Shown piece after piece: positions 1,514-37,148 of a stretch of DNA of 64,000 nucleotides (the first letter of the stretch is position 1; every line of letters begins with the position of its first letter). The notes beneath the pieces were generated by a model. It saw nothing but the letters and a program-made list of their open reading frames with translations. It ran no database searches and was not told where the DNA came from. Position numbers and translations under genes: made by a program. This DNA is from Candidatus Nealsonbacteria bacterium (lineage in GTDB: Bacteria; Patescibacteriota; Minisyncoccia; Minisyncoccales; MHMH01): the NCBI GenBank assembly GCA_016181965.1, contig JACOYH010000007.1, forward strand, positions 7,110-71,109, read 5' to 3'.

Positions 1514-1589
1514 AATATTGCAACATTATGTCACTTTTAAGTGGTTTTGTCTAATCAAAAGGCGACTTTATTGAGCCGCCTTTATTTTT

Positions 1590-1919: not shown

Positions 1920-2005
1920 AATGTGCCCCCGCAATAGGAAGAATCTCTAATATTCCAATATCATAAACTACGCACATCAACAAATATCAATGCGCAAGAA
2001 GTAAA

Positions 2006-4536: not shown

Positions 4537-4561
4537 GTGTTAGACATTGAATGTCTAACAC
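4537..4561. repeat. Palindrome family P3, copy 1 (GTGTTAGACAT tga ATGTCTAACAC)
   Basis: Perfect 11-bp arms with a 3-nt centre, 13 nt upstream of the GerMN ATG. The same arms recur at 58705..58729. Confidence 0.85.
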
Positions 4562-4645: not shown

Positions 4646-4698
4646 CTTTACCGAGGACTGTCCTTGCCAGATTCTGGCAAGGACAGTCCTCGGTAAAG
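4646..4698. repeat. 53-nt perfect hairpin/palindrome (25-bp arms, 3-nt loop) just after the AlkD-like gene stop
   Basis: ctttaccgaggactgtccttgccag att ctggcaaggacagtcctcggtaaag. No U-tract follows on the minus strand. Confidence 0.85.
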
Positions 4699-4706: not shown

Positions 4707-5420
4707 CTATTTCTTGCCTGTGAGGAGTTTCCTTCTTGTTTCCCGAACTGCTATTTTGGGCAAAAACTCTTTGTTTACATCTATATAAAATGCAACTCTT
4801 TGGCGATGATTTTGAATCAAAGCCCTGATTAACCAAGATACGGCCTTAGTAATTAAAATATCTTTTTCGCTCTTGAGCTTGTCTATATTTTCAAACGCCA
4901 TATCGGCCAATAAATGACTATTAGACTCTCTGACGGGCTTGGTGAGTAAAACTAAGGCAGCTCGTCTCTTGTGAACATCTTTATGTTTGACAAACATTTT
5001 GAGTAATTTTTTCCATGCATCCCATTTATTCAGCAATTCTTCGGCCGTAAATATGCTTTGACATAAGGAATCAACTTCTGACCAACCCTTGGCTCCGGTC
5101 AGCCATCTATCTAAATAGCGTGGCTCAATTTTCTTTCGTAATGTCGGTAAATATTCCAAAAGCTTTCCGCCGAAAGTTCTTTCAGTGTGCGATTTGCCTT
5201 CAAAAAATGAGTTTAACACCAAAAGAAGTTCTGCTAATGAAATATCTTTATGTTCCTTTACCCATTTTTTGGCAATCTGCCGCACTTGCGGATTGGTAAT
5301 GTTATATATAGGGCGAGGTGTACCCATGTATTTACCAGCATAATACCATCCCGTATTTTGAGGATTTGAATTTGCCACCCTTTTGATTTTCCTTAAAATT
5401 TCTTGATGAGATTGATCCAT
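4707..5420 (-). CDS. DNA alkylation repair protein (AlkD/AlkC-like HEAT-repeat family)
   Basis: 237 aa with ...IAKKWVKEHKDISL...GKSHTERTFGGKLL...WSEVDSLC...HKRRAALVLL...ILITKAVSWLIRAL, resembling the DNA_alkylation family. Confidence 0.65.
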   Translation of the reverse strand: MDQSHQEILRKIKRVANSNPQNTGWYYAGKYMGTPRPIYNITNPQVRQIAKKWVKEHKDISLAELLLVLNSFFEGKSHTERTFGGKLLEYLPTLRKKIEPRYLDRWLTGAKGWSEVDSLCQSIFTAEELLNKWDAWKKLLKMFVKHKDVHKRRAALVLLTKPVRESNSHLLADMAFENIDKLKSEKDILITKAVSWLIRALIQNHRQRVAFYIDVNKEFLPKIAVRETRRKLLTGKK

Positions 5421-5537: not shown

Positions 5538-6584
5538 TTAACTGAATTGCCCGATGATTTTATCGATTAAATTATTTAAGTTATGGTGCTTAACTACGAT
5601 TTCTCTTCTTAATTGAGGATCTGCGGGGGCTGTCATTAGATTAGTAATTTTATCGGCTAAATCATTGGCATTGCCTTTTTCAAAAATGTATTTATCGGCC
5701 AGAATTTTTTTATAGGCCTCGTTGCAGGTTAAAACAAGACAGCCCGCAGCCATGGCTTCCAGCACTACTTTATCCAAACTGCCGGTTGAGCTGGGGTTAA
5801 CAAATAAATCGGCCTCTTGATAATATTCTGGCATTTTGGCGTGAGGCGCGCCGGCCAAAAACTCTATATGTTCGTTTAGTTTATAATTTTTAGCTTGCTC
5901 TTTCAGGTCAGCCAGATATTTTTTTTCTGACTCTACGAGAGGTGTGCCCATAATTTTTAAGTTGATGTTGCAGACCTTTCTTTGGTTAACTAAAATATTC
6001 ATTGCTTCAATAAGAGTGGCGTGGCCCTTAACTGGCACGAGACGCGCCGCATATAACAAGCGGAAGGATAGAAGCCCGGCTTCCCGCGGAAGCCGGGCCT
6101 CTTGAACCGGCCGGAAAAGTTCGGTGTCTATTCCCTGTCCCAGCGCTTCTATTTTTTTGCTCGAAAGCCGACAGCCATCGGGCGAGGAAGTTACAATGTT
6201 GTCCACCAGTTTTTCTGCTATTTTCAGCTTAAGAGGCGTGGCTCCGTGCGCATACCATAAAATCAATTTTTTCCCGAAAATCTTAGCCAAAGGAAAGCTG
6301 GCGATAGCGAAAACAGGCCCCATATGAACATAAACGCCTCTGGCTTCCGATAAATGCGCGAGCAAAAATTTCTGCAACCTCCAGAGCTGCCTTATTTTAG
6401 AATAGCCCCTTTCTTTTCCCAAAGATAAAACCTTAATATTTTTGGGCAAATGATGTTCGCCCTCCGAAAGACAAATAGCGTAAACCTCATCTAACCGTTC
6501 TGAAAACTTTTCCAGCGTGCGATAAAAAAAGCTAAGGTTGTCGTCGTTGATATCTATTTTCTGGACAATGATAATCAGCTTCAT
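5538..6584 (-). CDS. glycosyltransferase family 1 (GT4-type, GT-B fold)
   Basis: C-terminal VNPSSTGSLDKVVLEAMAAGCLVL (E-x7-E region). The stop overlaps the next gene's start. Carries palindrome P1 copy A. Confidence 0.8.
   Translation of the reverse strand: MKLIIIVQKIDINDDNLSFFYRTLEKFSERLDEVYAICLSEGEHHLPKNIKVLSLGKERGYSKIRQLWRLQKFLLAHLSEARGVYVHMGPVFAIASFPLAKIFGKKLILWYAHGATPLKLKIAEKLVDNIVTSSPDGCRLSSKKIEALGQGIDTELFRPVQEARLPREAGLLSFRLLYAARLVPVKGHATLIEAMNILVNQRKVCNINLKIMGTPLVESEKKYLADLKEQAKNYKLNEHIEFLAGAPHAKMPEYYQEADLFVNPSSTGSLDKVVLEAMAAGCLVLTCNEAYKKILADKYIFEKGNANDLADKITNLMTAPADPQLRREIVVKHHNLNNLIDKIIGQFS
6071..6101. repeat. Palindrome family P1, copy A, in-frame inside the GT4 gene
   Basis: gaaGCCCGGCTTCCcgcGGAAGCCGGGCctc, translated on the minus strand as EARLPREAGL. 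Confidence 0.85.
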
Positions 6585-7588: not shown

Positions 7589-8627
7589 GTTCTTTAACAA
7601 CATCGTTCCAAGTATAATTCATGGGGATTTTCTTTATTTTCTCAACATAATCCGCGTAATTTTTCTCATCCAAAAGATATAAAATCTTTCTCTCTAAATC
7701 AGCCCCGTCTCTCGGATCTATTAAAATCAAACTATTTCCAACGGTATCCAGGCCGGTTTCTTTAGTCAGCAAAACTGGCTTTCCCATGGCCAGACATTCC
7801 AAAGCAAAATTGGGGGTAATTTCGGTGAGCGAGGGCAGTACGCAAATATAACTTCTGCCCATCTCTGCCATTAATTCTTGATGTGGCAGAGGAGACGCAA
7901 AAGTTACCTTGTCATATTTTATTAGATTTGTTTTTTCCGGCCCTTCGCCGATTATTTTGAGCGTTAACGGTTTGTCTGTTTTTGACAAGACATTATAGAA
8001 TACTTTGATTAAAAATTCCAGGTTCTTCAGTTTCAAAAGCCGCCCCGCGTATAGAATCTTGTAGTTTTCTGGCGTCGTTTGCAAAGGCGCTTCTTTGGCC
8101 TCGGGAAAGGGATTTTTTATGATGACTGTTTTCTCTGGCCTAAAGCCGTAATGTTTAAAATATATTTGCCGCTGAAAATCGCTTGTAAAAATTATTTTGT
8201 CGGTACTCTTGAGGATTTTTCCGATAATAAACATCGTTAACCTTTCTCGCAACGTTTTTACGGAACTCTCGTAGTATTCCCGTAAAGTTTGTTCGATTCT
8301 GCCTTGCTCCACCGCTCTTTCCCACAAAAAGTCGCCGCCGAGCCGTATGAAAAATCGTTTTCTCAAGATTTTACCGCAAAAGCAGGCGGGTATGCCGCAG
8401 CTTATGGCATTAAAAGCATAAATGGCATCCGCCCCCAAAGACGCTTTCAGGAGATTAGCGACATAGCAGGCAATTCTTAATGGCTGAGGAATTTTTCTAA
8501 GGTTGCCGTAAGAAACAACGGTTGTAGAAATTCCCCTGCCCTCAAATCCTTGCTTGAGTTTTTGGGCATATGTTGCCGGGCCCCCAATATCTGGCGGGTA
8601 AATTGGCGTGGCTAAAACAATTTTCAT
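7557..8627 (-). CDS. glycosyltransferase family 1 (GT4-type)
   Basis: MKIVLATPIYPPDIGGPATY... and VLPSLTEITPNFALECLAMGKPVLL. Confidence 0.8.
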   Translation of the reverse strand: MKIVLATPIYPPDIGGPATYAQKLKQGFEGRGISTTVVSYGNLRKIPQPLRIACYVANLLKASLGADAIYAFNAISCGIPACFCGKILRKRFFIRLGGDFLWERAVEQGRIEQTLREYYESSVKTLRERLTMFIIGKILKSTDKIIFTSDFQRQIYFKHYGFRPEKTVIIKNPFPEAKEAPLQTTPENYKILYAGRLLKLKNLEFLIKVFYNVLSKTDKPLTLKIIGEGPEKTNLIKYDKVTFASPLPHQELMAEMGRSYICVLPSLTEITPNFALECLAMGKPVLLTKETGLDTVGNSLILIDPRDGADLERKILYLLDEKNYADYVEKIKKIPMNYTWNDVVKEHEKSFISWSN

Positions 8628-9709
8628 CTTTTTACTTTTTGATAAATATCATATACCCTATTGGCGATATTTTGCCAGTTATATTTTGGCAAGACATTTT
8701 TTGCATTTTCAACCAGCATTTTGGCAAAATCAGGGTTGGATTGAATCTTGAATAAGGCCTCGCTAATTTGGCCAACATTGCCCGGCTCAACCAAAAGGCC
8801 GGTTTTCTGGTCTTCAATCAAGTCCAAAATACCTCCTACCCCGCTGGCAACAACCGGCAAGCCAGCGGCCTGCGCTTCCAAAACAACAATGCCAAAACCC
8901 TCTTGAATAGAGGGCAGAACAAAACAGTCGGCCATTGCCAAGTAAAAAGGAATTTTTTCATTGGGAATTTCTCCGAGAAATTCCACGCTATCTTCTGATT
9001 TTAATTGTTTAACTAAATTCTCAAGGTCCTTTCGCCTACTACCATCGCCGATAACCATTAACTCACTTGGTTGACACCTGGTGTCAACCAACGCTCTTAT
9101 TAAATATTCCACTCCCTTGACTTTTTCTAATCGGGCCACCGTAATGACAATAAACTTCTCGCGGGGCTGTCTCTTGATGTTTTCAAATCTCGATAGGTCC
9201 ACTCCGTTGGGAATAACTGCAACCTTTTTTACACCTATGTCTTCAAAATTTTTCTTGACGGCCGAAGAAGCGGCAATACAAAAAGCGGCTTTTCTGTAAA
9301 TAAAATTTTTCAAAGGATTTCTTTTCTTTTCGAGCCGTTGAACGGTAGTAATATAGGGAACTCTTGTTACGACAGAGAGGCAAAAACCCAGAAAGCTGCT
9401 TAGAAAACCTTGGCAGTGTAAAATATCAATTTTCTCTTGCCGCATTAAAATTAATGATTTCAGGAAAATACAGGGCAATAGGGAAACGGTATAGATTTTA
9501 GGGGAACGCGACAAATCAGATAAGGTAAAAAACGAAGTCCGGAAAATGCGCAATCCGCCTGCGGCCTCCTTGTTGGGCCGATTCTTTACCCTGCCTGTCA
9601 CCACGAAAACCTCGGCTTTTTTGGAAACATTCTCGGCAATATTGCGGGTCCATGTCTCAATGCCTCCAACAACCGGATAATAATGAAGCGCCGGCATCAA
9701 TATTTTCAT
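8624..9709 (-). CDS. glycosyltransferase family 1 (GT4-type)
   Basis: MKILMPALHYYPVVGGIETW... and VLPSIQEGFGIVVLEAQAAGLPVVASGVGG. Carries palindrome P2 copy 1. Confidence 0.85.
   Translation of the reverse strand: MKILMPALHYYPVVGGIETWTRNIAENVSKKAEVFVVTGRVKNRPNKEAAGGLRIFRTSFFTLSDLSRSPKIYTVSLLPCIFLKSLILMRQEKIDILHCQGFLSSFLGFCLSVVTRVPYITTVQRLEKKRNPLKNFIYRKAAFCIAASSAVKKNFEDIGVKKVAVIPNGVDLSRFENIKRQPREKFIVITVARLEKVKGVEYLIRALVDTRCQPSELMVIGDGSRRKDLENLVKQLKSEDSVEFLGEIPNEKIPFYLAMADCFVLPSIQEGFGIVVLEAQAAGLPVVASGVGGILDLIEDQKTGLLVEPGNVGQISEALFKIQSNPDFAKMLVENAKNVLPKYNWQNIANRVYDIYQKVKR
9067..9091. repeat. Palindrome family P2, copy 1, in-frame inside a GT4 gene
   Basis: TTGGTTGACACC t GGTGTCAACCAA, 12-bp perfect arms, encoding VDTRCQPS on the minus strand. 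Confidence 0.85.
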
Positions 9710-19934: not shown

Positions 19935-20042
19935 CAAAAAGAAGTTATCCACAGAATTAGAAATCGGAGAAACTCAACTTGTGCGACACTCGGTGTTGCA
20001 CAAATGCCCGACATCGGGAATCGGTAACTTCAATGATATCAT

Positions 20043-20885
20043 TTAAAAGAATGATTCGAGCCAAAAAGTGAAGATTGAAAAAGCGCTAAAAATGCTGGCT
20101 TGGCTAGCGGCAATTTGCTCTTGCAAAACCTGAATTAATTGATTTAGAAGATCCAATAGCTGAAGTTGGAGGGTTTCTATTTTGTCCCGCAGATCAACGA
20201 CCTCTTCGCCCTCGCCCTCGACCTCCGCAGGAGGCTGAACCTCTTCGGGCGCCGCCAAAGTTCTCACTGCTTCAAAATTTGATAAAACAGTAGTCAAACT
20301 GGTGCCTCTATCGTTGAAAGCCACCGCCAGCCGGCCGGAGTATTCAGTATCTGGCTGGAGACCGGTTTCATCAATATAAGAAACATTTGCTTGTTCGGTT
20401 CGCGCCACTACCCTTAAGTTGCCGTCCAGAATCTTAAAACCGAATTCATTATTGGACTGGTCTTGAAAATGCCAACGAAGAGTTGTTGAGGAAATCGCCT
20501 CCGGAGTTCTGGCCTGCAAACTGGCGATATTTTTAATATCTGCGGTAACAAAAATTCTTCCGCTAAAATTTCCGGAAATCGCTGTATCAAAAAATGGCGG
20601 ACTCAAAACCCGGGCGACTTCGGTCTCATCGCCATTCCAATCTGCGGAAGAGCCATCTTGCCAAAATGTCAATTCTGAAATAACAGTGTGGTCGGCTGTA
20701 CCGGCATTACTCAAAATGATTGACTGTTTGGGCGCAGATAGAGTCAGGTCTAAGACCAAAACCCGTGAGGTATTATAGGGAATATCGTAAGTAGATTGAG
20801 GATTTACCTTAAAGTCCTCGGCCACAGAAGCCGTGGCTATGGTCGGCAGAAAGATAAAAAATAAAAGCAAAAAAATTCTTCTCAT
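20043..20885 (-). CDS. secreted protein with an FN3-like domain, acidic linker, C-terminal coiled coil and hydrophobic tail
   Basis: Signal peptide MRRIFLLLFFIFLPTIATA; ...LRWHFQDQSNNEFGFKI...LQPDTEYSGRLAVAF...; LRDKIETLQLQLLDLLNQLIQVLQEQIAASQ. Confidence 0.6.
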   Translation of the reverse strand: MRRIFLLLFFIFLPTIATASVAEDFKVNPQSTYDIPYNTSRVLVLDLTLSAPKQSIILSNAGTADHTVISELTFWQDGSSADWNGDETEVARVLSPPFFDTAISGNFSGRIFVTADIKNIASLQARTPEAISSTTLRWHFQDQSNNEFGFKILDGNLRVVARTEQANVSYIDETGLQPDTEYSGRLAVAFNDRGTSLTTVLSNFEAVRTLAAPEEVQPPAEVEGEGEEVVDLRDKIETLQLQLLDLLNQLIQVLQEQIAASQASIFSAFSIFTFWLESFF

Positions 20886-20953
20886 TATTTTATTATACCA
20901 TTATGTCAGCATGATGTCAGGATGTCCGGCACCCCTCAATTCTGTACTTGTTA

Positions 20954-21007
20954 GGTCTGTTAGAGCCAGGCTCTAACAAGCTTGTTAGAGCCTGGCTCTA
21001 ACAGACC
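20954..21007. repeat. 54-bp perfect palindrome centred on ACAAGCTTGT
   Basis: ggtctgttagagccaggctctaacaag|cttgttagagcctggctctaacagacc. An extra taacagacc copy follows at 21011-21023. Confidence 0.9.
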
Positions 21008-21026
21008 TGCTAACAGACCTAACAGA

Positions 21027-21057
21027 AAACAAAAGCCCCCGAGATAATCTCGAGGGC
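21027..21057 (-). terminator. Rho-independent terminator of the 1395-aa surface-protein gene
   Basis: Minus-strand RNA gcccucgag auuau cucgggggc (9-bp stem with one G-U pair) followed by UUUUGUUUU. Confidence 0.65.
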
Positions 21058-21116
21058 TCTTGCTTTTCTCCCGCACAATCTCTCACAAGGAAAAAGATGC
21101 GGAAATTCCTACAGCG

Positions 21117-24100
21117 TTACTTAGACAGAGTCAGAGTTTGCGTCGGCAAGCCGGAGACCTTGTAGTCCACGCTCCAGTCGCTGGTACCCATTGTGTGGGT
21201 TCCGCCAGCTCCGGATCTATCAGACCAAACGAAGGTCGCGGCAGTTGAAGTGACTGGCATCACGCTGTTTCCATGAGCCCATCCGCCGCCAACAGCCGTT
21301 TCAAAGGAACCGGTTGTGGTTGCAGTGGATCTCTTTTCAATCTTGAAAGACAGCGAGTCGCCGGCCGCACCGCCGTAAGCAATGTCTCCTCTCAACTCGT
21401 AGGTCTTGGTTGCGCCTGCGGAAATCGTCTGCTCGTTCTTAGCAACGAACCCGACTCTGGCGCCGCCACCTGTAAAGTTGTGGACATAGTAACCAGTGTC
21501 AGTCGTGGTAGGCAGAACTTCTTCGTTTGTCGCAACATCGTAGACCTTCATCGTGCTGGTGGCAACCAATGACTTGGCCACGTTAGCAACGTCAGTCGTT
21601 GAGGTACCAATAAAGATGGCAGCAGTGGTTGTTGAACCGCCGGCGCCAACCGTGTAGGCCTCGGAACTGACTGTAACGTTACCTGACACGTCAAAGATTA
21701 CTTTCTTCCAGCCAATGTCTCCGCCCGAATCAGCCGTAACAGTCCATCTGTAGAGCACCTTTGTGCCAGCGCCAAATGAAGTGCTGGGCAAAGAGGCGGC
21801 TGCCACAGTGGGCTTTGTCTTATGGAGAATCTGAACATTACCGCAAATCCTCGCTGTGTCAGCACTAATCGTAGAACCGGAACTTACTCCGATCGCGTCG
21901 GTGCTGCTAGCCAGACATAGCTGTGGAGCGTTACCGGTCGTGGCTCCAGCTTGATCAGCTGATTTCACGCCGTAAATGTCGGCTTTAACAAGCAAGGTTT
22001 TAGTGGTATCTCGCGGAATTCTCCAGTAAGAGCCAACCGGGAAGTTGAATGTGGTTGACGAGTCAGTCAATCCGGAGCTTACCAAAACTTGGTCCACTCC
22101 TAATTTAGTGCTGCCGTCCCACAAACTGACATTGGCGAAATCAGCGTCAACTGCCTGTGTCCTGTCAATACTGATCGCCTTGACATCAATATCTTCCCTG
22201 GCAGCAGTGAGAGTCACAGCCAAGAAGGTTACATCCTGCTTAACAGCGCCGGTGTTGCCAACCGCGACTATCCCTATCTCGGGATTGGTCGGAGAAGGCG
22301 CGGCCTGTACTGTCAGGGTTCCTCTGGCCTGAACGGTCACATAGTTGATAGCTGCCGGGCTTGAACTGGTACTGAAGTTCACGCCGCCAAGAGCCGAACT
22401 GTAGCTCAAGGTGGTAGTTGGCGTTGAGTTGGAACTCAAACCGGTAAAGACGATGTGCTTTGTCTGCTGTGAAGCATCAGAAGAACTGGAAATACCGAAA
22501 GCGATACGGCTGCCAGCTACTGCGGTTGAGGAAATGTCGGCCTTAACGGTAATCGTTTTTTGACTACCCTTAGTGACATCAAACCCTTGCGAGTTTAAGA
22601 AGTCAGAGGCCGAGAAGGTCACGGTTGTTGCCGTAGACGAGTCCCAGTCCCTAAATGTAGTCAATCTGGTAGTTCCTTCGTAAAGGGCGATGTTTTCCAA
22701 GTTGTCTTGGTCCGCGTCGGCAGGAGCGCCAGCGATATCACTGCTGGAGGCGCCCGAGGCGCTCAACTTGATGTAAGTCACCCTGACATCTTCAGATGAA
22801 CCGGCGGTAAACACCAATCCAACAATTGAAATTCCGGTCGCTCCGACAATCGCGTTCTGGTCGCCAGGAATAGCGGCTGCGGAAACGGTCAGAACTCCCT
22901 CGCCAATAGTCATTGTTTTACCAGTAACCGATGAAACGGTTTCGGTCAGCGTGGCCGAAGAAGCAACACCGGTGGTCACAATGTCAGCATTATTGGTAAG
23001 TTGCATATTACCGGTAGCCAAGGCGGTTGAAGTCGGAACATCTGCTAAAACCTTCAAAACCACGGTCCCTGAAGCTGGCACTGTCAGATTAATACTGAAA
23101 GCGGCTTCAGTTGTCGGCGCGGTAACGGTTGAGCCGAGCTGGGTTCCGTCAGAAACTTTCAACAGTTTGACATTGGTGTAATCGCCCGACGCCGCGTTTG
23201 ATCCCGCTGACTTCAGGTCAATAGTAACTGACGAGACGGTCAGGTCTTCTCCGGAATCAGCCGTCAGATTGAATCTTAAGAACTCCTGGTCGGTTGCGCC
23301 CTTAATAATGTTTTGCGCGGCAGGAGTGTTGGCATTCAAGGTAACGGTCAATGCGCCGCTGGCGCCAATGGTGTGAAGATTGGCATTGCCGCTGGTCAAG
23401 GTAGTGTCGCTCTGCGTAATGTCATACTTTGACTCTAATCCGTCAACCCAGACGTCGGTGTTAGCGGCGATATCCAAGTCAAGCGTTTTAGTAGCTGTGG
23501 CTCCGCTGGGAATATCGGCTTTAACCTGAATTGTTTTGTTGCCCGACTTTGGCACATCAAACAATCCGGGGCTGTCGTATCCCACAGAGTTTGAACCGAA
23601 TGTTGCGTAATTACCGATTAGAGATACGGCGCTGCCGATTTGCGTTGAGCCGTCCCAAAGAGTGACATTGGAAATATCAGTGGCCGCGCCATTGCCATTG
23701 TTAAGCTTTAGCCGCAACTTGACAATTCTTACGCCCTCCCGCGAACCCGCGGAGAACTTGAAAGCCGAGAATAATCGGCTGGTAGTTCCCTTGGTGTAGG
23801 TTTGAGCGGCCGGGTTGTAAGCCGAATCAATGTTAACGGTTAAAGTGCCTTGTCCAATGGTCATGGTTTGGCTGGTCTGCTTACTGAAAGCGGCTGTGTC
23901 TGATGCGGCTACTTCTATTGAGCCGCCGGAGTTAGCTCCGTAAGACGCAACATCGCTCACTTCGGTGATCTCAAAAAGCACAGTTCTGGCTGTGGAAATT
24001 CCCGAAGCAATGTCAGCGTAACCGTAAATGGTCTTTGTGGCGCTGGCCAAGATTTGGAAGGGATTGCCCGACAAATCAATAGTGGCCTTGCCCTGGGAAT

Positions 24101-25304
24101 TAAGCGCAGCAACAGTACTGCCGATCTGCTCGCCAGCGTATTTCAACTTGATATTGGAAATATCGTTGGTGGATGCAGAGCCGGTTTGAGTCACTACGAT
24201 TTTAGTCACATATACGGCCTCACTTGAACTGGCTGTAAAGTCCCAGGAAGCGATTTCCTGCTCGGTTGCTCCGGACAAAATAGTTGCGTTAGCTGGAGTC
24301 ACGTTAGCAGAAACGAATAATTCGCCGACTGAAATTCCAGCGATAGTCAAGGCCTTGCCGTATGCTGGGAATGTTCCGCTGACTGTGGCAGAAGTTGTGA
24401 CATCAGCGGCAGAATCAATACCCAACGTAATGCTGTCGCCGACAGTGGCAGTGCCCTTGGCGGCAACGCTAACTTTCACGGTTAGGTATTTGGTTGTGTT
24501 GGCAGGAATTTGCCAGGACAAGCCTGTAAATGTTGCCTTGTGCGTGTTGGTGTTTAAAGCCTGTGACGAGCCCAACTGGGTCGTGCCGTCATAGAGCTTA
24601 ACAGCAGAAACATCAGCGTCGGCTGACACGCTGTCTCGCTTTATTTTAATCTGGGTAACAGTATAGCCGGTAGTGCCGCCTTCGAATTTGAATTTAGCGG
24701 CGTCAGCATCAACTGCGGCCAAAGCTATTTGTCTTGCTGCCGGTGTGTCGGAAGCCAAACTTATAGCGGCTGTGCCTGATGGCGCTGGGGCAGGAGGCGG
24801 TGTCGATGGCACGCCAGATGACAACAATGCGTTCAGCTTAGCTCTGGTAGTTGAGCCAACGTAGCCGGTGCCTTTGGTCAATCCCCAAGAAGCCAAAATA
24901 TCGCTGGCGTATTTCTCTTGGAATTTGACAACCGCCGCTTTGGTCAAAGGACCAAAGTAGGTTGTTTCCATTCCCTTAGAACCAACGCCGGATGCGGCCA
25001 ATTGGGTGGCAGAATCGGAGTTTAAGACAATCTGAAGATATTTCACTTCATTACCAGAAGCGCCCAATTCAATGGCTGTCATAAAGGTGAAATCAGCCGG
25101 AACGCCTGTGATGGCGCCGCCGGTTGTTCCGCCCTCAACTGTGGACAGCTGCGATTGTAATGCGGCTATTTGAGCCAAAAGGGTGTCAATCTGGGCTTGA
25201 AGTTCGGCAGCTGTAATGGCTCCGGCAACTCCGGGGCCCATCAGCCATACAGCGGTGGTAATGGTCGTAACGGTCGCTACAATCTTTTTAGTTAATTTAT
25301 TCAT
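21117..25304 (-). CDS. giant (1395 aa) T/S/A/G-rich cell-surface protein: signal/anchor, coiled coil, PG-binding domain, Pro linker, six or more ~130-aa Ig-like repeats (S-layer or fibril candidate)
   Basis: [97 protein letters not shown]. Recurrent ...DIS.V.L.DG.TQ.GS... modules. Visibly higher G+C than the flanks. Confidence 0.8.
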   Translation of the reverse strand: [1395 protein letters not shown]

Positions 25305-25454
25305 TTTTTGTTTGTTTTTTGCGTTAAATTATTATTTCTTCAGAGTCATTATCGACCTTCCCACTGCCTTTTGGATATGAAGAATTCTTCTTTTAACTAA
25401 TGTGCCATTAGGCGACATTCAAAAAGAGATGGGATATGACCTCCAAATTCAAAA

Positions 25455-26204
25455 TTATTGGTTATTATGCGCCTGCCAAAGCTTGTATAGGGCTTCTTGG
25501 TAGAGCCCTGCGTCGTAATCCTGCATGGCCTGCTTTAGCAGTTCTTGTTTTTCTTCAGTTAATGTTCTGCTTGATAAATCCTCTATCAAATATCCGGCTG
25601 TCTGTTTCTCTAAAACGCTCAAAGCATTTTTCAAATCCTGCGTATCGCCAACCTCGGCGCCCAAGACCCTTTCTACTCTTTCTTTGTTTTCTGCTAATTT
25701 CAGGGTTTCTTCAACTAATTCTCGCAGCACAATAGCGTCCGAGCTGGTTACGTTGGCATCCATATCATTGAGATTCTGGGTGGCCTGCACCAAACTTGCC
25801 TGAAATTCTTTGATGGCCGGCTCTAATTTTCCAACCTGATTGCTTTCGGCTATTTGGCTTAATTCTGCCAGGCGCTTATTGGCTAATTGTAGCTGGACTT
25901 TTGGCTTTTCCATTTCCGAAGAAAATCCCACCTGCACGGTTTCAGTCGCTTTCTTGATTGAAAAGAAAAAGTCGCCGGGCATGGTGCCTTGCGCAAAGCC
26001 GAAAAGCCCGATAACAAGCACGACGCTCAAAATCGGAGCAAAGGCCAGCTTGTATCTGAAAACAGAAAATACCGAGGCCATTTCTTCCGCTTCCCTTGTC
26101 TGCTCTTGGGCCAGAATTCTGCTCTTAGTCAAAACAACCCAGTCCTTTCTGGGTTTGATTTCCTTGAGACATTTTAGATTGTGGATAAGTTCATTATCGG
26201 TCAT
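25455..26204 (-). CDS. membrane-anchored anti-sigma-like protein with a DUF5667-type helical domain
   Basis: ATG at 26204 (MTDNELIHNLKCLKEIKP...), one TM (LAFAPILSVVLVIGLFGF), then PGDFFFSIKKATETVQVGFS..KVQLQLANKRLAEL. The ORF-track start at 26333 is TTG and reads through a palindrome. Confidence 0.65.
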   Translation of the reverse strand: MTDNELIHNLKCLKEIKPRKDWVVLTKSRILAQEQTREAEEMASVFSVFRYKLAFAPILSVVLVIGLFGFAQGTMPGDFFFSIKKATETVQVGFSSEMEKPKVQLQLANKRLAELSQIAESNQVGKLEPAIKEFQASLVQATQNLNDMDANVTSSDAIVLRELVEETLKLAENKERVERVLGAEVGDTQDLKNALSVLEKQTAGYLIEDLSSRTLTEEKQELLKQAMQDYDAGLYQEALYKLWQAHNNQ

Positions 26205-26276
26205 ATCGGATATCGATTGTCTATTATAGTTATGACGGAAAAGAAGATATTTTGTTACACCAATATCCAGCCATCG

Positions 26277-26330
26277 TTTGTGATAGGCCGGGCTTATCAC
26301 AAGCTTGTGATAAGCCCGGCCTATCACAAA
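26277..26330. repeat. 54-bp perfect palindrome centred on ACAAGCTTGT, between the sigma and anti-sigma genes
   Basis: tttgtgataggccgggcttatcacaag|cttgtgataagcccggcctatcacaaa. Confidence 0.9.
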
Positions 26331-26349
26331 CAAACCGCTTATTACAAAC

Positions 26350-27810: not shown

Positions 27811-27863
27811 TTGAGGGGTTTACGACATCCCTCATTAAGTGAGTGATGTCGTAAACCCCTCAA
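27811..27863. repeat. 53-nt hairpin (19-bp perfect outer arms plus inner stem) after the coiled-coil gene
   Basis: ttgaggggtttacgacatc c ctcat taa gtgag t gatgtcgtaaacccctcaa. No U-tract follows. Confidence 0.8.
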
Positions 27864-28445: not shown

Positions 28446-31400
28446 AAGCCATAAAATCTATAGGGGGTAAACTATCTTTGCAAAAGACGATTTTAACGAT
28501 TGCCATAGCCGCAATCGTTTTTTCTTTCTTGTCCAATTATTCTTTGGCCGGCCAAACAAAAGTCAACCAGCAAGAAATGCAAAGAATCAAACAGGGCTTG
28601 GATATTGTTAAAACAGCTTCAAGTTTCGGAAGCGTTCTTCTTGACGATGGCGGCTTAATGAAAGCGCTCAACACGGTTATCAAGGGCGGCAGCGCGGCCA
28701 CGGATGTCACCTACGGCCTGCTTGTCTTGAGCGCCGTCAACGAAATGGAACTAATGGATTTGGTGCTTTCGCAGGAGTATAAAACAATAGAAAGAGAATA
28801 TTTTGAACAAATTTTAGACGAGAGGACCAATTTAATATCTTATTGGAGAGGAGTTGGTTTTGACTTGCCCAAAGTGCTCTCTGGACAGATTACCGGCCCC
28901 ATGGCTGGCTTAACTTTAAACAGCTTTGCTATGACCAACAAAATTATCCATATTGCCACCGCGTTTGAAGTGTTAAAAAAAGGCCAACTGTATGATGGCC
29001 TATGGTATTACTTTGATTTAAGAAAAAATAGCAATGAGCCGCATGAAATAGCTTGGCGCGAAGCAAAAATGATACTTGGTTTTGCGACTAATTCAGTGGG
29101 ATTTCACGGACCAACACAAAGACAGAATAAAAGAATCGAGCTCGAAGCTCAATTCACATCCCTTTGGGATAAATGGGGGCTATACGCCACGCCAGGAGGC
29201 ATCAGTAATCAGTATCAAGAACAAGCAAAAGAGGAAATGAGAAGCATGCTGGCCGTGGCAGCTGAAACGCAAAGGTTAGCTGAAATAGAAAAACAAAAAG
29301 AACCATCTTGGCTATCAAAACAAATAGATGAACTCAAAACACTCGCGTCAGGCCTTGGAGAAAAAATTCACACTATGGTCTCCAAGATCGCCGACGCCAA
29401 TCCCTTTAGCGCCGGCCCAATTGTCCAATCGCCAAAAGATACACCGGTGGCACCGGTGCGAAATTCGGCCGGGCTTCAGAGCCCCAAAAACCGAGAATCA
29501 GAAGACCAAACCCCGACAGAAAGAGGCGAAGAAGCCCGGCTTCCTCGGGAAGCCGGGCTTCAGGTTCCACGAGAGGTCCCACGAGAGGTCAAACCTCAAG
29601 CGCCTCAAGAGATTGAAAGTGAAAAGACAACAGAGGAGAAAGTGAAAGATAAAGAGGTCCGAGAAGAGGAAAAAATTAAAATAGTCGAGATCAAACCCAC
29701 GCCAGATGAGCCGGGACTTTGCGAGAAAATTGCCGGGGACTTGCCTAAAAGATATAGGGCTTTCATTAACGAGGTGGCCTGGATGGGCAGTCAAAATTCG
29801 CCAAATGACGAATGGATTGAGCTGAAAAATATTTGGGGCTTACCCGTCAATCTTAACGGCTGGCAATTACAAGACAAAGACCAGCAAATAAAAATAATTT
29901 TTGAAGAAAATGATACTATTCCGGCCAGCGGATATTATCTTTTAGAAAGGACAAATGATGACTCAACGCCCAAAGCCAAGGCCGACAAAATATACACGGG
30001 CGCTTTAGGCAATAACAATGAGGCCTTATATTTATTTGATAATGACTGCCGATTGGAAGACGAAGTTATAGCCGATCCCAGTTGGCCAGGCGGCGACAAT
30101 ACCGCTAAAAAAACAATAGAACGGCTGGATCCCTTATACTGGTACACAAGCGCTTCTATAGGGGGCAGCGCCGGAAAAAACAACGGCACGCCTCCGGCAA
30201 TTTTAAAGCACCCCAGCGCGCCAACTCCCCCTTTGCCTGCTTCAGCGCCGACTTATCTTACAATTTTGATTGACGAAGTCAGAATTGATGGCGATGGAAA
30301 TATCAAAAACGATTCCGTTAAACTCTACAATCCCAACGATACGGCGGTTGATTTAACAAATTGGTATTTGCAAAGGAAAACAGCGAACTCTTCCGTATTC
30401 TCAACTTACGCGCCAAAATCGCTTTTTGCCGGAAAATCCATTGAGGCAAACGGATACTTTTTAATTGCTCACGCTTCTTCAACGTTCGCTACTTCCGCAG
30501 ACGCCATCACAACTTACTCTCTGACTCGAAATAATACCCTCGTCTTAAAAAATCCAAATGGTGAAATAGCGGACACGGCGGAGCCAGCAGAAAATAACGA
30601 AGAAACGGCGTCGTTATCGGTTGTTATCAACGAAATCGCTTGGGCAGGCGCTAAGGCCAATTCTGCCGATGAGTGGATTGAACTTTACAACAACACTACT
30701 TCAGGTATTGATTTGACTAATTGGTCAATTTTGAAAGATGACGAGGAATGGATTATCTTTTCCACCTCAAGCATCGTCTCGCAGGGATATTATTTATTGG
30801 AAAGAAGCGACGATCAGACAATCAGCGATATTACGGCCGACCAATTTTTTACCGGCGCTCTAAGCAACAGCGGCCAAAAATTAGAATTAAAAAATGCAGC
30901 CGGTGACTTAATGGACTTAATTGATTTTTCTTCTAATTGGCCAGCCGGCGAAGCCGCCCCAAACTATCTTTCAATGGAAAGGATATCTTCTACTTTCAGC
31001 GATTGGGCTAGCAATAATCGAATCTCAACAAACGGCTTGGGTAGCGGCAATAATGCCATCAACGGCACGCCGAAAGAAAAAAATAGCGTTTCGAAGTCCT
31101 TCACAGAAGTTGTCGGCGATCGCGTATTTTCAGACGACTTTACGCTTACAAAACTTGGCAGTCCTTATATTTGGGAGGGCTCCCTTATCATGGAGCAGGG
31201 GACTAAATTAACCGTCGAACCCGGCGTTACCGTAAAATTCAAGCACACTGCCCCTAACCAGCCCCACGCTCAAGTAAAAATAAAAGGCGAGATGGAGGCC
31301 ATTGGAACAAACGAGCAAGAAATAACTTTTACGTCTTTTCAGGAAAATAATTATTGGGACGGGCTTTATTTTGAGAATTCAAATTCTACTCTTGAAAATG

Positions 31401-32446: not shown

Positions 32447-33138
32447 AATCCGATAAAATCGCGAATAACCGGAGCAGGAATAGCCGAAACTCTACCCTGC
32501 GCGCCAACCATGCTTATGCCAACAACTTCGCCGGAGATGTTAAACAAGGGGCTGCCAGCCGCCTTGGATTCACGAATGTTTGTCACCACTGCGTCTTGGC
32601 TGAAATAAGAAACAATGCCCTCGTCTGTAAACATCTTAGTGGTTGTGGCCAATCTCATCGTGCCAAGTAAAAAAACTCTTTCTCCAAGGTCTGTTTTTTC
32701 CAAATTCGCGAAGCCGGCAGTGCGCAAACCGCTCTGGTCCACTTTCAACAGCGCCAAGTTGCTTTTTGTATCTCTTTTAAGTATCTGCCAAGCAGGCAAC
32801 TGGCCATCAACGTAAAAATAAAAATCTGCTCCCTGCGGCACGAGCTCGGCCAATGTAACAATCAACCCATCAGAAGTTACCGCCAAGCCAGTCCCCTCTA
32901 ACGTTTCTCCGCTGGCTGTTTTTGTCCTGACGCCCACAATAGTTTTTTCCACCCTTTCAATGGCTTGAGTAAGGGCAACGTTTTCCTGAACGGTTATTGT
33001 TTGAGTCTGATTGATAACAATTTCGCCGTCAAAAAAAGAAGACCCCATCAAATACGGCAAAAGGTAGGCCTGCGCCCAAACGCCCCCCAACGCCCCAAAA
33101 AGAAAAATCAAGAGAATTTTTAGAATTTTTTTAGACAT
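32443..33138 (-). CDS. HtrA/trypsin-fold protein with all three catalytic-triad positions substituted (predicted pseudo-protease)
   Basis: Compared with the active HtrA at 37149-38387: TNKHVV becomes TLAELV, DLAILKI becomes NLALLKV, and GNSGGPLL becomes KAAGSPLF. Its start overlaps the clpB stop by 8 nt. Confidence 0.7.
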   Translation of the reverse strand: MSKKILKILLIFLFGALGGVWAQAYLLPYLMGSSFFDGEIVINQTQTITVQENVALTQAIERVEKTIVGVRTKTASGETLEGTGLAVTSDGLIVTLAELVPQGADFYFYVDGQLPAWQILKRDTKSNLALLKVDQSGLRTAGFANLEKTDLGERVFLLGTMRLATTTKMFTDEGIVSYFSQDAVVTNIRESKAAGSPLFNISGEVVGISMVGAQGRVSAIPAPVIRDFIGF

Positions 33139-35830
33139 AAACGCTCTCTGATTTTTTTTCTCTCTTGATTAAGTCCTGCGGCGTTCTAAAAACAACGCCG
33201 CCGTTTTCCGCATCAATGACAATTTTATCGTTGGCTCCAATTTCTCCAGAAACAATCTTTAAAGCCAATGGATCGAGCACCAATTTTTGGATAACCCTCT
33301 TGAGAGGCCGCGCTCCCAAGTTGGGGTCAAATCCCCGCTCGGCCAGCAAGTCCTTGGCCATCTGGCTGACCTTAATGCCGATATCTTTCTGCTCCAGCCG
33401 CTGGGTCACTTTTTCCATTTCAAGGTCAACAATTTGCTTGATTTCCGGTTTTCCCAAATAGTCAAAAATAACTATTTCGTCTATTCTGTTTAAAAATTCC
33501 GGCCGGAAACTTTCGCGCAAAGCGTCCATAACTTTGCTTTTCAAATCCTTTTTGGCGCCGCTGTCTCCCTCTCCGGAAAATCCCAGAGCGCTCATTTTGG
33601 CAATATGTTCGGAGCCGATATTGGAAGTCATAATCAAGATAGCATTTTTGAAAGAAGCGGTCCGTCCTTTGGCGTCGGTCAGCCGGCCGTCTTCGAGAAT
33701 TTGCAACAAAATATTGAAAACATCGGGATTGGCCTTTTCTATTTCGTCCAACAAAATTACCGCATACGGCCTTCGCCTAATTTTTTCAGTCAGTTGACCG
33801 CCTTCGTCATAGCCCACATATCCCGGGGGCGAGCCAAGAATTTTAGAAACGGTGTGTTTTTCCATGTATTCGGACATATCCAAGCGCACCAAAGCCGCCT
33901 CGTCGTTGAACAAGAATTCGGCTAAGGCCCTGGCGGTTTCGGTTTTACCAACGCCCGTGGGCCCCAAGAATAAGAAAGACCCCAGCGGCCGATTCTGCTC
34001 TGAAATACCGGCTCTCGAGCGGCGAATGGCGCTGGAGACGGCCACAATGGCCTCTTTCTGGCCGATAACTCTTTTTGCCAAAATGTCTTCCATTTTTTCA
34101 AGTTTCCTGGCCTCTTCTTCAATCAGCCGTGTTACAGGAATGCCAGTCCATCGCGAAACAACCCTAGCCACGTCTTCTTCGGATACATCCTCTTTCAAAA
34201 GGCGGTGCTTCTTTTGAAAGCGAAGCAGTTCTTTTTCTTTTTTTTGAATTTCTTTTAAATGCGCCGGTATTTCTCCGTATTTAATTTCGGCCACCTTTTG
34301 GAGATTGCCCTCTCTTTGGGCAACTTCAGTTTGAAAAGATAATTGATCAACCTCCTTTCGCAGCCCTCGAATGCTTTGAATAAAGTCCCTTTCTGTTCTC
34401 CACTGCAATTCCAACTGCTTAACTTTTTCCTGAAGATCGGCCAACTGGCGATTGATAACGCTAATTTTCTTTTTGCCGATAGCGGCCTTTTCCGCTTTCA
34501 TGGCGGCTTTTTCAATTTCCAATTTTTGGACTTCCTGCTTGAGACGTTCAAGTTCAACCGGCTCTGACTCTATTTCCAATCGCAAAGCAGAAGTTGCCTC
34601 GTCCATTAAATCAACCGCCTTGTCTGGCAAAAATCTGTCGGTAATATACCGAGCGGCCAATTCGGCTGCGGCCACGAGAGCCGCGTCTTTAATTTTTACG
34701 CCGTGATGAACTTCGTATTTTTCTTTTATTCCTCTTAAAATGGCAATAGTATCTTCCACAGACGGCTCGGCCACAAAAATGGGCTGAAATCTTCTTTCCA
34801 AAGCCGGGTCCTTTTCTATGTATTTTTGATATTCCTTAAGGGTAGTGGCGCCGATGGCCCGCAGTTCGCCGCGGGCTAAAGCCGGCTTTAAGAGATTGGA
34901 GGCGTCAATTGCGCCTTCAGCAGCACCCGCTCCCACCAAAGTATGGAGTTCGTCAATAAAAAGAATATATCTGCCGCCGGCCCTATTAACTTCTCGCAAC
35001 AGGGCCTTTACCCTGTCTTCAAATTCTCCCCGGTATCTGGTGCCGGCGACTAAAGCGCCCAAGTCCAGGGCAATAATATCTTTGTCTTTAAGCGATTCGG
35101 GAACATCCCCTCTTACTATTTTCTGCGCCAAACCCTCAATGATGGCTGTTTTGCCGACGCCCGCTTCGCCAATCAGCACAGGATTGTTTTTTGTTCGTCT
35201 GGACAAAACCTGCATGAGCCGCCGGATTTCGTTATCCCGGCCTATCACCGGATCCAACTTGCCGGTTCTGGCAAGGACATTAAGATTTCTCGAGTATTTT
35301 TCTAAAACCTGATATTTGGATTCGGGCTCGGGGTCGGTGATTCTTGCGCCGCCGCGAATTTGCGATAAAATTTTAAGGGCCTCTTCATAGTTCAATTTTC
35401 CAAAGCCCAGCGCCTCTCCGCTTGATTGCAAAAAGCTGGCTTTTTCCAAAACCTCCCGCGCTTTCACATCGGAATCCAGCAGAGCCAAAAACAAATGTTC
35501 GACCGAAATAAAATCGTCGCCCATTTTCATTGCTTCCTGTCTTGCCCGCTCAAGGGCCTTAGCCATATCTTGCGTCAGATAAAACTGGCCCATCATTTGA
35601 GGCGTGGTAACGGTAGGGATTTTATCTAAAGCCGCCTTGGCTTTTTTCTTCAGACCCTCAAGATCAACTCCCATTTTTTGGAGCAGAGTCAAAACCACGC
35701 TTCCTTCTTGGGAAACGAGAGACAACAGCAAATGAAGGGCGTCCACCTGCTGTTGACCATGCTGGCGGGCCTCGTCTTGAGCCGCCAAAATTGCCTCTTG
35801 CGCTTTATGGGTAAAATTATTTCCTATCAT
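33131..35830 (-). CDS. clpB: ClpB protein disaggregase (AAA+ chaperone)
   Basis: 899 aa with a Clp_N repeat, two Walker A motifs ([19 protein letters not shown]) and a long coiled-coil M-domain between the NBD1 subdomains. Confidence 0.95.
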
Positions 35831-35932: not shown

Positions 35933-35958
35933 ACTACTATACTACATAGTATAGTAGT
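35933..35958. promoter_or_regulatory. 26-bp AT-rich palindrome, site 1 of 3 (candidate operator)
   Basis: ACTACTATACTA ca TAGTATAGTAGT, 103 nt upstream of the clpB ATG and 60 nt after the NDT-like gene stop. Confidence 0.6.
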
Positions 35959-36504: not shown

Positions 36505-36530
36505 ACTACTATACTACATAGTATAGTAGC
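36505..36530. promoter_or_regulatory. 26-bp palindrome, site 2 of 3
   Basis: ACTACTATACTA ca TAGTATAGTAGc, 1 nt after the regulator's stop codon and 74 nt upstream of the NDT-like ATG. Confidence 0.6.
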
Positions 36531-36531: not shown

Positions 36532-37002
36532 TTACTGTATTTGTTTTTTGCGTTTTGTGGTCGGTTTTTCTGAAGAATCTAAAAGATTAAAAAGCAGAAA
36601 ATGAAGCGGGTATCGCTTTTTAAGCCATCCAAAAGTCAGCGGCTGACTTTGTTGGAGCTCACGCTCGCCTGCTTTCCACTGCAACTCTAATTCTTTTTCT
36701 AAACGCGGAAGTATTTGAGCATATCCTCCATCTCTGCCTTGCAACCACTTATGCACCCCTGCGATGGTAATGTGGCTCGTATGCATAGCATTGCGAATAT
36801 CATCGTAGCTTTTGCCCTCAAGCAGAAAGCGAGCAATGCGAATTCTTCGCGCCAACATAATAGCTTCTGTTTCGCTCAAAAGATCGCGGAAAAAATTCTC
36901 TATCTGCTCTCTTGTTTCCAATAAAATCACTAAACTCCATAATTCATTCAGAAGATTGTGTTTTTCGTCTTTGGAGATTGTTTTTGGCTGAACCCTCGGC
37001 AT
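36532..37002 (-). CDS. TrpR-like/YerC-YecD-family helix-turn-helix protein
   Basis: ...REQIENFFRDLLSETEAIMLARRIRIARFLLEGKSYDDIRNAMHTSHITIAGVHKWL... Confidence 0.65.
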   Translation of the reverse strand: MPRVQPKTISKDEKHNLLNELWSLVILLETREQIENFFRDLLSETEAIMLARRIRIARFLLEGKSYDDIRNAMHTSHITIAGVHKWLQGRDGGYAQILPRLEKELELQWKAGERELQQSQPLTFGWLKKRYPLHFLLFNLLDSSEKPTTKRKKQIQ

Positions 37003-37022: not shown

Positions 37023-37054
37023 AACACTACTATACTATATAGTATAGTAGTGTT
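37023..37054. promoter_or_regulatory. palindrome site 3 of 3, here a perfect 32-bp palindrome abutting the regulator's -10 box
   Basis: aacACTACTATACTA ta TAGTATAGTAGTgtt. On the minus strand a TATAAT (37023-37018) follows directly, 15 nt before the ATG at 37002. Confidence 0.65.
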
Positions 37055-37087
37055 TCGATAGTGCTTCCGGGTAGCGCTTACAAACAC

Positions 37088-37142
37088 TTACAGACTTACA
37101 GACGCCCGACGTCTGTAAATCTTACAGACGTCGGACGTCGGG
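37088..37142. repeat. cluster of TTACAGACG repeats (three direct, one inverted) giving mutually exclusive hairpins
   Basis: ttacagac ttacagacg cccga cgtctgtaa atc ttacagacg tcgg acgtcggg. The best hairpin is 37106-37118/37122-37134 (13-bp arms, 3-nt loop). Confidence 0.8.
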
Positions 37143-37148
37143 AAATTC

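Follow-up and report, generated by a model that had tools for sequence, protein, structure and literature searches.

A 56-bp perfect palindrome in a Nealsonbacteria contig is probably a recent copy of a small hairpin repeat family dispersed in Parcubacteria

The DNA analysed here, referred to as the window, is a 64,000-nucleotide stretch of contig JACOYH010000007.1 (assembly GCA_016181965.1) from a Candidatus Nealsonbacteria bacterium. Its subject is a perfect palindrome, P1, located between a 1395-aa gene and a 280-aa gene, together with a second palindrome, P2, located 5.3 kb away. On the minus strand the order is a sigma factor gene of the extracytoplasmic function (ECF) type (26850-26350), P2, an ECF promoter, a DUF5667 gene (26204-25455), the 1395-aa gene (25304-21117), its terminator, P1 and the promoter of the 280-aa gene. 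HYT21_02790 and HYT21_02780, encoded in a Candidatus Nealsonbacteria metagenome-assembled genome (MAG; 80,359-bp contig), match the DUF5667 protein and the 280-aa protein, respectively, at 100% identity; exact-protein look-ups of the 280-aa and 1395-aa products gave no match. An earlier interpretation of this DNA, made from the letters and open reading frames (ORFs) and called here the sequence-only reading, had described the neighbours of P1 as surface-protein genes. That label is unverified, as the neighbouring proteins gave only weak, sub-threshold matches to PG_binding_1 and DUF5344. The same reading had placed the true terminator of the 1395-aa gene next to P1, and the alignment with relatives agrees (A2, below). 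Elsewhere, the ORFs of the window include cell-envelope sugar genes, clpB, htrA, suf/nif, ribonucleotide reductase (RNR), comEC, ftsAZ, hisS, mfd and topA.

Both palindromes are perfect over 56 bp, with 28-nt arms and no spacer (Table 1). P1 had been reported as a spacer-less perfect palindrome of 54 bp with 27-nt arms and a hairpin in each arm; all of this holds except for the size, which is one base longer on each side. P2 had been proposed as a relative of P1, and the two do share their size and AAGCTT centre, with both arms matching the family model described below. The common centre, ACAAGCTTGT, occurs nowhere else in the window (0.09 occurrences expected), and the longest perfect arm in 20 dinucleotide-style shuffles of the window was 12 nt. 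Each P1 arm contains its own hairpin, GTTAGAGCC-A/T-GGCTCTAAC, and each P2 arm contains TTGTGATAGGCC-G-GGCTTATCACAA, mismatched at a single pair (G.T or A.C). As DNA, the long stem of P1 was calculated at -31.3 kcal/mol versus about 2 x -7.5 for the two unit hairpins. RNA folding gave -53 kcal/mol for an 86-nt region with the P1 stem and -56.6 kcal/mol for an 88-nt region with the P2 stem (z about -9 to -11), and the minimum-free-energy structure was a single 26-bp stem, not two short hairpins. A scan of 20800-21200 for intrinsic terminators gave no terminator-like site, and P1 has no T-run on either side. The window gave no Rfam match at the gathering threshold, only generic miRNA-hairpin matches far below it. 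The extra copy of the terminal repeat noticed earlier beside P1, TAACAGACC, is present, and proved to be part of a 12-nt tandem duplication with a period of 12 (Tandem Repeats Finder, TRF). Without this duplication the arms of P1 are 32 nt long (20949-20980 versus 20981-21007 plus 21020-24) and the symmetry spans 20949-21024, so the duplication interrupts a once longer, 64-bp palindrome.

Spacer-less perfect palindromes are a classic artefact of multiple displacement amplification and of some assemblers, and P1 could on that account be an assembly or amplification chimera. This was examined in Logan contigs, which are separate k=31 assemblies of individual sequencing runs. At P1, a contig of run SRR12113430 (L075) starts with AGCTTGTTAGAGCC... 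exactly at centre-2, and its next 145 nt match the window without a difference. At P2, contigs of SRR12113430 (L001) and SRR12113384 (L002) stop exactly at centre+2, in ...CACAAGCT. In a k=31 de Bruijn graph, unitigs end 2 nt beyond the centre because the first k-mer wholly inside the palindrome is the reverse complement of the last, and the observed breaks are the branch points predicted for a 56-bp perfect palindrome with these boundaries. The flanks of P1 and P2 are also the same neighbours as in syntenic relatives, and a sister palindrome is present in an unrelated Kaiserbacteria MAG from another study (L003). P1 and P2 are genuine. The assembly artefact against which the sequence-only reading had cautioned is very unlikely, and a chimera of either kind has next to no claim on these data.

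Orthologous loci were fetched via homologues of the DUF5667 protein. Protein identity was 87% for L015/L016, which come from the same samples, 79% for L008, 75% for L017, 60% for L009, 57% for L012 and 55% for L014. The gene order, from sigma factor to DUF5667, the gene of about 1400 aa, the terminator, the promoter and the next gene, is kept in all relatives. Alignments of the P2 site (A1 and A3; L015, L017, L008, L009, L012 and L014) revealed an ECF promoter 0-20 nt past the sigma stop codon in all relatives, to which the window adds 89 bp between the sigma gene and the promoter of the DUF5667 gene. In the alignment of the P1 site (A2; L008, L009, L012 and L014) the terminator abuts a TGnTATAAT promoter in all four relatives, and the window adds about 125 bp. 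The intergenic spacers are 40-63 bp and about 100-160 bp in the relatives versus 145 and 231 bp in the window. The CTGACA -35 hexamer of the 280-aa gene lies within the added DNA, and its -10 TATAAT and its ATG (at 20885, nearly leaderless) are ancestral and conserved in A2. The first 18 nt of the 89-bp P2 segment (26349-26332, GTTTGTAATAAGCGGTTT) resemble a decayed 5' half of the hairpin unit described below, directly after TAAG. Both palindromes are absent from L008, L009, L012, L014, L015 and L017, which keep the promoters; about 75 kb of the relatives' loci held no palindrome with arms of at least 12 nt besides ordinary terminators. The comparison indicates that P1 and P2 are lineage-specific, recent insertions. 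The sequence-only reading had offered active maintenance or recent formation: recency is borne out by the absence from the relatives' sites, including for P2 that of the co-occurring 87% relative, and nothing shows active maintenance at this locus. In Escherichia coli, marked inviability reportedly concerns palindromes well above 100 bp, in work associated with Leach, and 56 bp is said to be tolerated; on this account the presence of P1 does not in itself demand a special mechanism. Derivation of the arms from ancestral promoter sequence, and a target-site duplication, were suggestive by eye only in A2 and A3 and are left as speculation. At the junction occupied by P2, L008 has a hairpin of its own (about 9121-9150; TTTGGCTCAAG-tcaag-CTTGAGCCAAA), which contains AAGCTT and extends the 3' end of the sigma gene; this junction may be a recurrent hot spot.

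The sequence-only reading took the palindrome as the repeated unit. We found instead that the arm is what repeats, two such units in inverted orientation making up the palindrome. The unit is a stem-loop of 23-27 nt, CTTGTK-N2-3-RGCC-N-GGCY-N2-3-MACAA, usually preceded by (T)AAG, so that its 5' edge reads AAGCTT; the consensus from metagenome contigs is (T)AAG-CTTGTG-NNN-AGCC-N-GGCT-NNN'-CACAA(A). A doublet-core pattern was scanned over one genome per GTDB species, and a half-palindrome pattern over JGI metagenome contigs. The species scan gave one true doublet relative, in the Candidatus Kaiserbacteria MAG (L003): a 48-bp perfect palindrome, TTGTGCAGGCCAGGCTTGCACAAG joined to CTTGTGCAAGCCTGGCCTGCACAA, between rpsU and ybeY at a site non-orthologous to P1 and P2. 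The remaining four of the five genome-contig matches (L004-L007) had no palindromes and were set down to chance. Window positions 49978-55273 are syntenic with the L003 palindrome locus (pth, signal peptidase, hisS, ..., ftsA, ftsZ), and the corresponding 52619-52926 has no palindrome. The strict full-doublet pattern had no match in the JGI contigs. The half-palindrome pattern matched 42 distinct JGI loci, and in 13 of the 42 the free 2-3-nt segments were exactly complementary, where fewer than one would be expected (CGA/TCG at nine loci, CTT/AAG at two, GA/TC and ATA/TAT at one each); further units were found in the same contigs. One 27-mer recurs at at least nine distinct loci, in short metagenome contigs of mixed genome origin. 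A single unit in L059, TAAGCTTGTGATAAGCCCGGCTTATCACAAAG, is the P2 arm with one base changed, and one in L039, CTTGTTGAAGCCAGGCTTCAACAAG, is of the P1 subtype. P1 is thus not unique, as the sequence-only reading had allowed it might be: family units occur both in metagenome contigs and in the Kaiserbacteria MAG. The contigs with single units belong to Parcubacteria, and their MurF has its best named relatives in Wildermuthbacteria, Nealsonbacteria and Parcubacteria; L054 encodes a homologue, 47% identical, of the product of the window's DNA-alkylation-repair gene. The half-palindrome pattern had one match in IMG/VR viral contigs, a chance one with non-complementary stems, and thus gave no sign of a phage vector.

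The stem of the unit co-varies. Across 11 distinct units 98.5% of cells were paired and 5 of 12 pairs had changed on both sides; none of 500 shuffles was as good, and no register slide came close. A covariance model, R1, built from family units without P1, L003 and L039, scored the L003 units at about 32 bits and L039 at 29.6 bits. An unfiltered scan of the window with R1 gave five significant matches, all within 19971-26335: the units of P1 and P2 and one diverged single unit (Table 1). L070 has one or two units in 13.8 kb, and about 80 kb of the relatives' DNA gave no family match. P1 arms therefore belong to the hairpin family. The 5' flank (T)AAG was found in 10 of 13 single units, of which the AG was fixed by the search pattern, leaving only the upstream T/A as free information. 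All three doublets, P1, P2 and L003, are centred on AAGCTT, and their loop bases and mismatches are mirrored between the two units, not direct copies. This suggests that they are head-to-head doublets of the unit sharing the self-complementary AAGCTT.

Single units lie at gene ends and also in frame inside genes. Six begin at, or no more than 7 nt from, the stop codon of a same-strand ORF, and the preceding ORFs include RNase HII, ComM-like, DNA-alkylation-repair and deaminase-like genes. In murF, the unit (L047, L070) encodes KLVRSPASHK between the Mur_ligase_M and C domains. A MurF that is 62% identical (L073) has KLVLGLAKHK at the same position, coded by TTGTGCTTGGCT-T-AGCTAAGCACAA, the same hairpin with compensatory changes; what is conserved in the murF copies is the stem, not the peptide (RSPAS versus LGLAK). 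The ancestral KL(I/L)KG--SGGV is kept in P0128 and in more distant MurF homologues. P0128 is visibly closer to the L073 protein than the other homologues are, a closeness judged by eye in alignment A5 with no pairwise identity value, and the murF hairpin is polymorphic among homologues that include this apparently close one. The dprA copy is located in the linker that joins the DprA core to the winged helix. Duplications at the foot of the hairpin recur in the family (L041/L033, L038 and P1). Of 29 GTGCGAAGCC half-sites, 27 are in hairpins (23 by regular expression and four in the ATGTG variant of L041/L033), and the other two are an adjacent foot duplication. A role as a DNA uptake sequence (DUS/USS-like) was rejected, as half-sites are absent outside hairpins save for foot duplications and single half-sites are not in excess.

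Table 1. Coordinates of P1, P2, related units and neighbouring signals in the window.
Feature	Position	Strand	Evidence
P1, inverted doublet of hairpin units joined at AAGCTT (20978-20983)	20953..21008	.	Palindrome search, folding, contig break at centre-2
First P1 unit with its flanks; hairpin CTGTTAGAGCC-A-GGCTCTAACAA at 20957-20979	20951..20987	-	R1 25.8 bits, E 6e-5
Second P1 unit with its flanks; hairpin TTGTTAGAGCC-T-GGCTCTAACAG at 20982-21004	20974..21010	+	R1 24.2 bits, E 2e-4
12-nt tandem duplication CTAACAGACCTG x1.9, foot of P1 right arm	20998..21020	+	TRF; 15-nt inverted match 20949-20963 / 21010-21024
P2, AAGCTT-centred, units at 26278-26302 and 26305-26329	26276..26331	.	R1 47.4 and 41.6 bits; contigs L001 and L002 stop at centre+2
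Third family match, single diverged unit TTGTGCGACAC-T-CGGTGTTGCACAA, 40 nt past the stop of the 280-aa gene	19971..20009	+	R1 22.3 bits, E 7e-4
About 125-bp segment lacking a counterpart in relatives, between conserved terminator and promoter	20905..21029 (+/- 5 bp)	-	A2
89-bp segment lacking a counterpart in relatives, between sigma stop codon and ECF promoter	26261..26349	-	A1, A3
Intrinsic terminator of 1395-aa gene, GAGCCCTCGAG-attat-CTCGGGGGCTT plus T-run, kept in relatives	21031..21057 (approximate)	-	Sequence, alignment A2
Promoter-like site of 280-aa gene: -35 CTGACA (20920-20915), 17 nt, TG-extended -10 TATAAT (20897-20892)	20892..20920	-	11/12 consensus match
Conserved ECF-type promoter of DUF5667 gene, GTGTAAC-N16-CGTCATAA	26230..26260	-	Invariant columns in A1/A3

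Collectively, these results suggest, with a probability of about 0.6, that P1 is a recent non-coding copy of a small hairpin repeat family dispersed in Parcubacteria (Nealsonbacteria, Kaiserbacteria and Wildermuthbacteria-like), selfish in the manner of repetitive extragenic palindromic (REP) sequences and their doublets, REPINs. A number of observations weigh against this interpretation. The copies counted in 64 kb of this genome are two doublets and one single unit, and the arms of P1 share only about 55% identity with those of P2 and hence do not stem recently from a single master, unlike the copies in classic REPIN populations. The search pattern itself imposes part of the (T)AAG/AGCTT flank. 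[quoted passage not shown] In murF, about 21 nt were replaced by the 27-nt hairpin beside native K-L codons (AAR CTT), which is not a clean insertion, and the persistence of this hairpin with compensatory changes could reflect selection for function and not selfish spread. The P1 insertion is also dated less tightly than that of P2, as the closest relative with the P1 locus is L008 at 79%.

One alternative is that P1 and P2 are selected cis elements of the operon, acting as RNase III sites, terminator reinforcement, insulators or regulator sites. They bracket exactly one transcription unit (ECF promoter, DUF5667, 1395-aa gene, terminator) and share a 10-bp centre, their RNA stems are extremely stable, and MITE stems are known RNase III substrates (PMC10969869). 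The co-varying stem and the position of sense-strand single units right after stop codons are also what an element of mRNA 3' ends would show. However, relatives have the same operon, promoter and terminator and neither palindrome, P1 lies downstream of an intact conserved terminator, and no U-tract follows the stem. The family is moreover found in the murF and dprA frames and in the rpsU-ybeY gap and is thus not tied to this regulon. We regard selected cis elements as an unlikely explanation, albeit one that deserves some weight; the covariation and the sense placement after stops keep alive an RNA-level role for the family.

The palindromes might instead have arisen locally and de novo, by template-switch or snap-back repair, with no mobile family behind them and a merely convergent likeness to other hairpins. 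Partial direct copies of the arm ends in the flanks (TCTGTTAG three times beside P1; TAAGTTTGTAATAAGC beside P2) are consistent with this, as are the inverted doublets of unrelated hairpins at 4646-4698, 27811-27863 and 37096-37144 in the window, where about 75 kb of relatives have none. Against it, a single unit in L059, an unrelated contig, differs from the P2 arm by one base, the subtype in L039 is that of the P1 arm, R1 finds P1 although it was built without it, and the 13-nt core with its AAGCTTGT edge has no counterpart at the empty sites of relatives. A purely local origin is for these reasons improbable. Even less can be said for sites of a site-specific enzyme. This could be a recombinase with its crossover in AAGCTT, or a telomere resolvase that acts on a 56-bp palindrome in the manner of telRL of phage N15. 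The two sites share a symmetric 10-bp core, and their size and perfect dyad symmetry recall telRL-like telomere-resolution sites. Yet the window ORFs examined include no recombinase or protelomerase, both sites lie inside a syntenic stretch of the chromosome, the arms differ between P1 and P2, and the hairpin unit also occurs singly and in coding DNA. Such enzyme targets are highly improbable here. Integron attC sites and TIGR arrays were rejected as well: P2 and L003 have no GTTRRRY cores, the symmetry is perfect, integrase and Nop-domain genes are absent, and the copies are dispersed, not arrayed.

If P1 is a copy of the hairpin family, as we favour, two routes fit its primary spread. A single-strand enzyme of the HUH type, like the REP-associated tyrosine transposases (RAYTs), could insert the unit 3' of ..AAG, which suits both the preferred flank and the absence of target duplications. 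Alternatively, templates could be switched during replication with the self-complementary AAGCTT as an anchor; this route suits the replacement in murF, the AAGCTT-centred doublets, the extension of the arms beyond the unit and the slippage duplications. For the doubling step strand switching is favoured. Synthesis would switch strand at AAGCTT and copy the hairpin and a few flanking bases back, and would therefore leave a perfect palindrome with arms longer than the unit. The 12-nt duplication would be due to later slippage at the hairpin foot. P1 most likely has no dedicated function at its locus. As side effects, it may put a 26-bp stem into read-through RNA, have the potential to form a cruciform and supply the 280-aa gene with a new -35 hexamer.

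A bolder proposal, which we hold only tentatively and consider unlikely, is that the family spreads and renews itself without any transposase, by template switching on its AAGCTT edge, as a self-propagating DNA structure. The hairpin would be copied into any ..AAGCTT.. site, the K-L codons of murF included, overwriting a few native codons. Template switching would keep the stem halves complementary and so mimic selection, and an occasional fold-back would give perfect doublets such as P1 and P2. The palindromes would be tolerated because reduced genomes of the Candidate Phyla Radiation (CPR) may lack palindrome-cleaving repair.

Further palindromes were found in the window. A third long perfect palindrome (4646-4698) has 26-nt arms, a 1-nt centre and an unrelated sequence, and is again a hairpin plus its mirror image. 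It directly follows the stop codon of the DNA-alkylation-repair gene (4707-5420, minus strand), and the L054 homologue of that gene has a single unit of the P1/P2 family at the same place (2269-2303). A 17-nt core of its arms is shared with a palindrome of 12-bp arms, ATTGCCGAGGACAGTCCTCGGCAAT, at 59473-59497 in the topA frame (58885-60903). A 13-nt match to it in L048 was rejected as an unrelated 95-bp tandem repeat. At 27811-27863, upstream of an operon for a 186-aa and an LTD protein, lies an inverted doublet with 24-nt arms, one mismatch and the unit TGAGGGGTTTACGACATCCCTCA. This unit resembles TTGTGGGAyTTACGAAGTCCCACAA, of which L012 has two direct copies at the orthologous spot (8133-8157, 8188-8212) and L008 none; the hairpin site is conserved and its arrangement variable. 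The right flank of P1 matches the 27811-27863 arm at 17 of 21 positions; other window segments score equally, and this likeness was not used. At 37096-37144, between htrA-like and Trp_repressor-like genes, a TTACAGACG...CGTCTGTAA hairpin forms an inverted doublet that is older and decayed and adjoins direct CTTACAGA repeats. CTWACAGAC was considered as a motif shared with 37087-37129 and dropped, as it is not enriched (17 versus 12 +/- 3.5). Restriction avoidance of AAGCTT was likewise rejected: shuffles hinted at a deficit, but a maximal-order Markov model expects 22.4 sites and 21 were observed.

Other repeats in the window have the look of operators. The palindrome ACTACTATACTA..TAGTATAGTAGT occurs three times (35933-35958, about 36505-36530 and 37023-37054), upstream of clpB (33131-35830, minus strand), a 137-aa gene and a Trp_repressor-family gene (36532-37002). 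Judging by these sites, the three genes look like a small autoregulated stress regulon. GTGTTAGACAT-N3-ATGTCTAACAC occurs twice just upstream of gene starts (4537-4561 and 58705-58729), with TGTTAGA/TCTAACA half-sites in common with the P1 arms; TGTTAGA itself occurs nine times in the window, seven of them intergenic. Palindromes on the family core GAAGCCNGGCTTC lie in coding DNA at 29531-29561 (LTD-protein linker, EARLPREAGL), 6074-6098 (GT4 glycosyltransferase) and 56482-56514 (Mfd-like helicase). R1 gave these only a sub-threshold, partial match (12.6 bits), and the LTD linker is poorly conserved and not a clean insertion relative to L008. Among the neighbouring genes, the 280-aa gene family lacks a Shine-Dalgarno sequence and starts 6-7 nt past the conserved TATAAT, both in the window and in four relatives, which suggests a leaderless mRNA. 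The 280-aa gene (20043-20885) is 317 aa long in L075 (98-1051; SRR12113430), 88% identical overall; the upstream DNA is identical, and the difference is therefore a length polymorphism within the population. Window positions 1-2005 have no ORF of at least 120 aa (the longest is 114 aa) and also lack tRNA genes, repeats and Rfam matches that reach the gathering threshold, which is odd in a compact CPR genome.

CPR (Patescibacteria) genomes are among the smallest and most streamlined, and are usually called repeat-poor. Our literature search found no report of such elements in CPR bacteria. The consequence at the locus is modest: terminator, ECF promoter and sigma gene are moved apart, and a -35 hexamer is perhaps added. 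More broadly, the family would mark very recent genome change between co-occurring strains, and it would offer a test case for the spread of small structured repeats lacking an obvious transposase. Palindromes of this kind would also explain contig breaks in short-read CPR assemblies, P1 and P2 both ending k=31 contigs. Template-switch mutagenesis at quasipalindromes and strand-switch palindrome formation, associated with Ripley and Lovett, are a mutational mechanism and not an element family. They account for the perfect arms, the self-complementary centre, the flanking bases in the arms and the slippage duplications at the foot, and do not alone account for a hairpin unit at many unrelated loci.

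Among element families, the closest comparison is with the REPs and REPINs of Pseudomonas and Enterobacteria, which are mobilised by RAYT transposases (PMC3116915, PMC3337134). As there, the unit is a short imperfect palindrome with a conserved fold, two inverted units form one long near-perfect hairpin, copies lie outside genes, after the end of one gene and before the next, and single units and doublets coexist. Subfamilies in one lineage likewise differ in sequence and keep the fold, with no MITE-type terminal inverted repeats and no target duplication. In contrast, the spacer between units is 0-6 bp here versus at least 34 nt in SBW25 (PMC3337134), and the total length is 56 bp versus about 89 bp or more. 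The window ORFs of at least 120 aa include no RAYT, and doublets look rare and single units common, which is opposite to what REPINs show. The unit described here also occurs in frame inside genes, and its host belongs to the CPR and has a tiny genome. In these last respects it resembles the Rickettsia palindromic elements (RPEs; PMC10969869), where a reduced genome carries a repeat both intergenically and in frame in conserved metabolic genes, at tolerated linkers, as in murF and dprA here. RPEs measure about 100-150 bp and code for a peptide that is conserved, whereas the present unit is 27 nt (9 codons) and conserves its stem; the two share no sequence similarity, and P1 lies between genes. 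MITEs, for example Correia/CREE, ERIC and RUP (PMC10969869), resemble P1 in being small, non-autonomous intergenic insertions with promoter hexamers and RNA stems cleavable by RNase III. They differ in having terminal inverted repeats around a non-palindromic core and target-site duplications, whereas here the palindrome is the whole element. Together, these comparisons suggest that the family is known in kind, as a small palindromic repeat like REPs/REPINs, RPEs and MITEs, and new in its CPR host, in its spacer-less perfect doublets of 48-56 bp, in a 9-codon unit that conserves its stem within essential genes, and in having no visible transposase.

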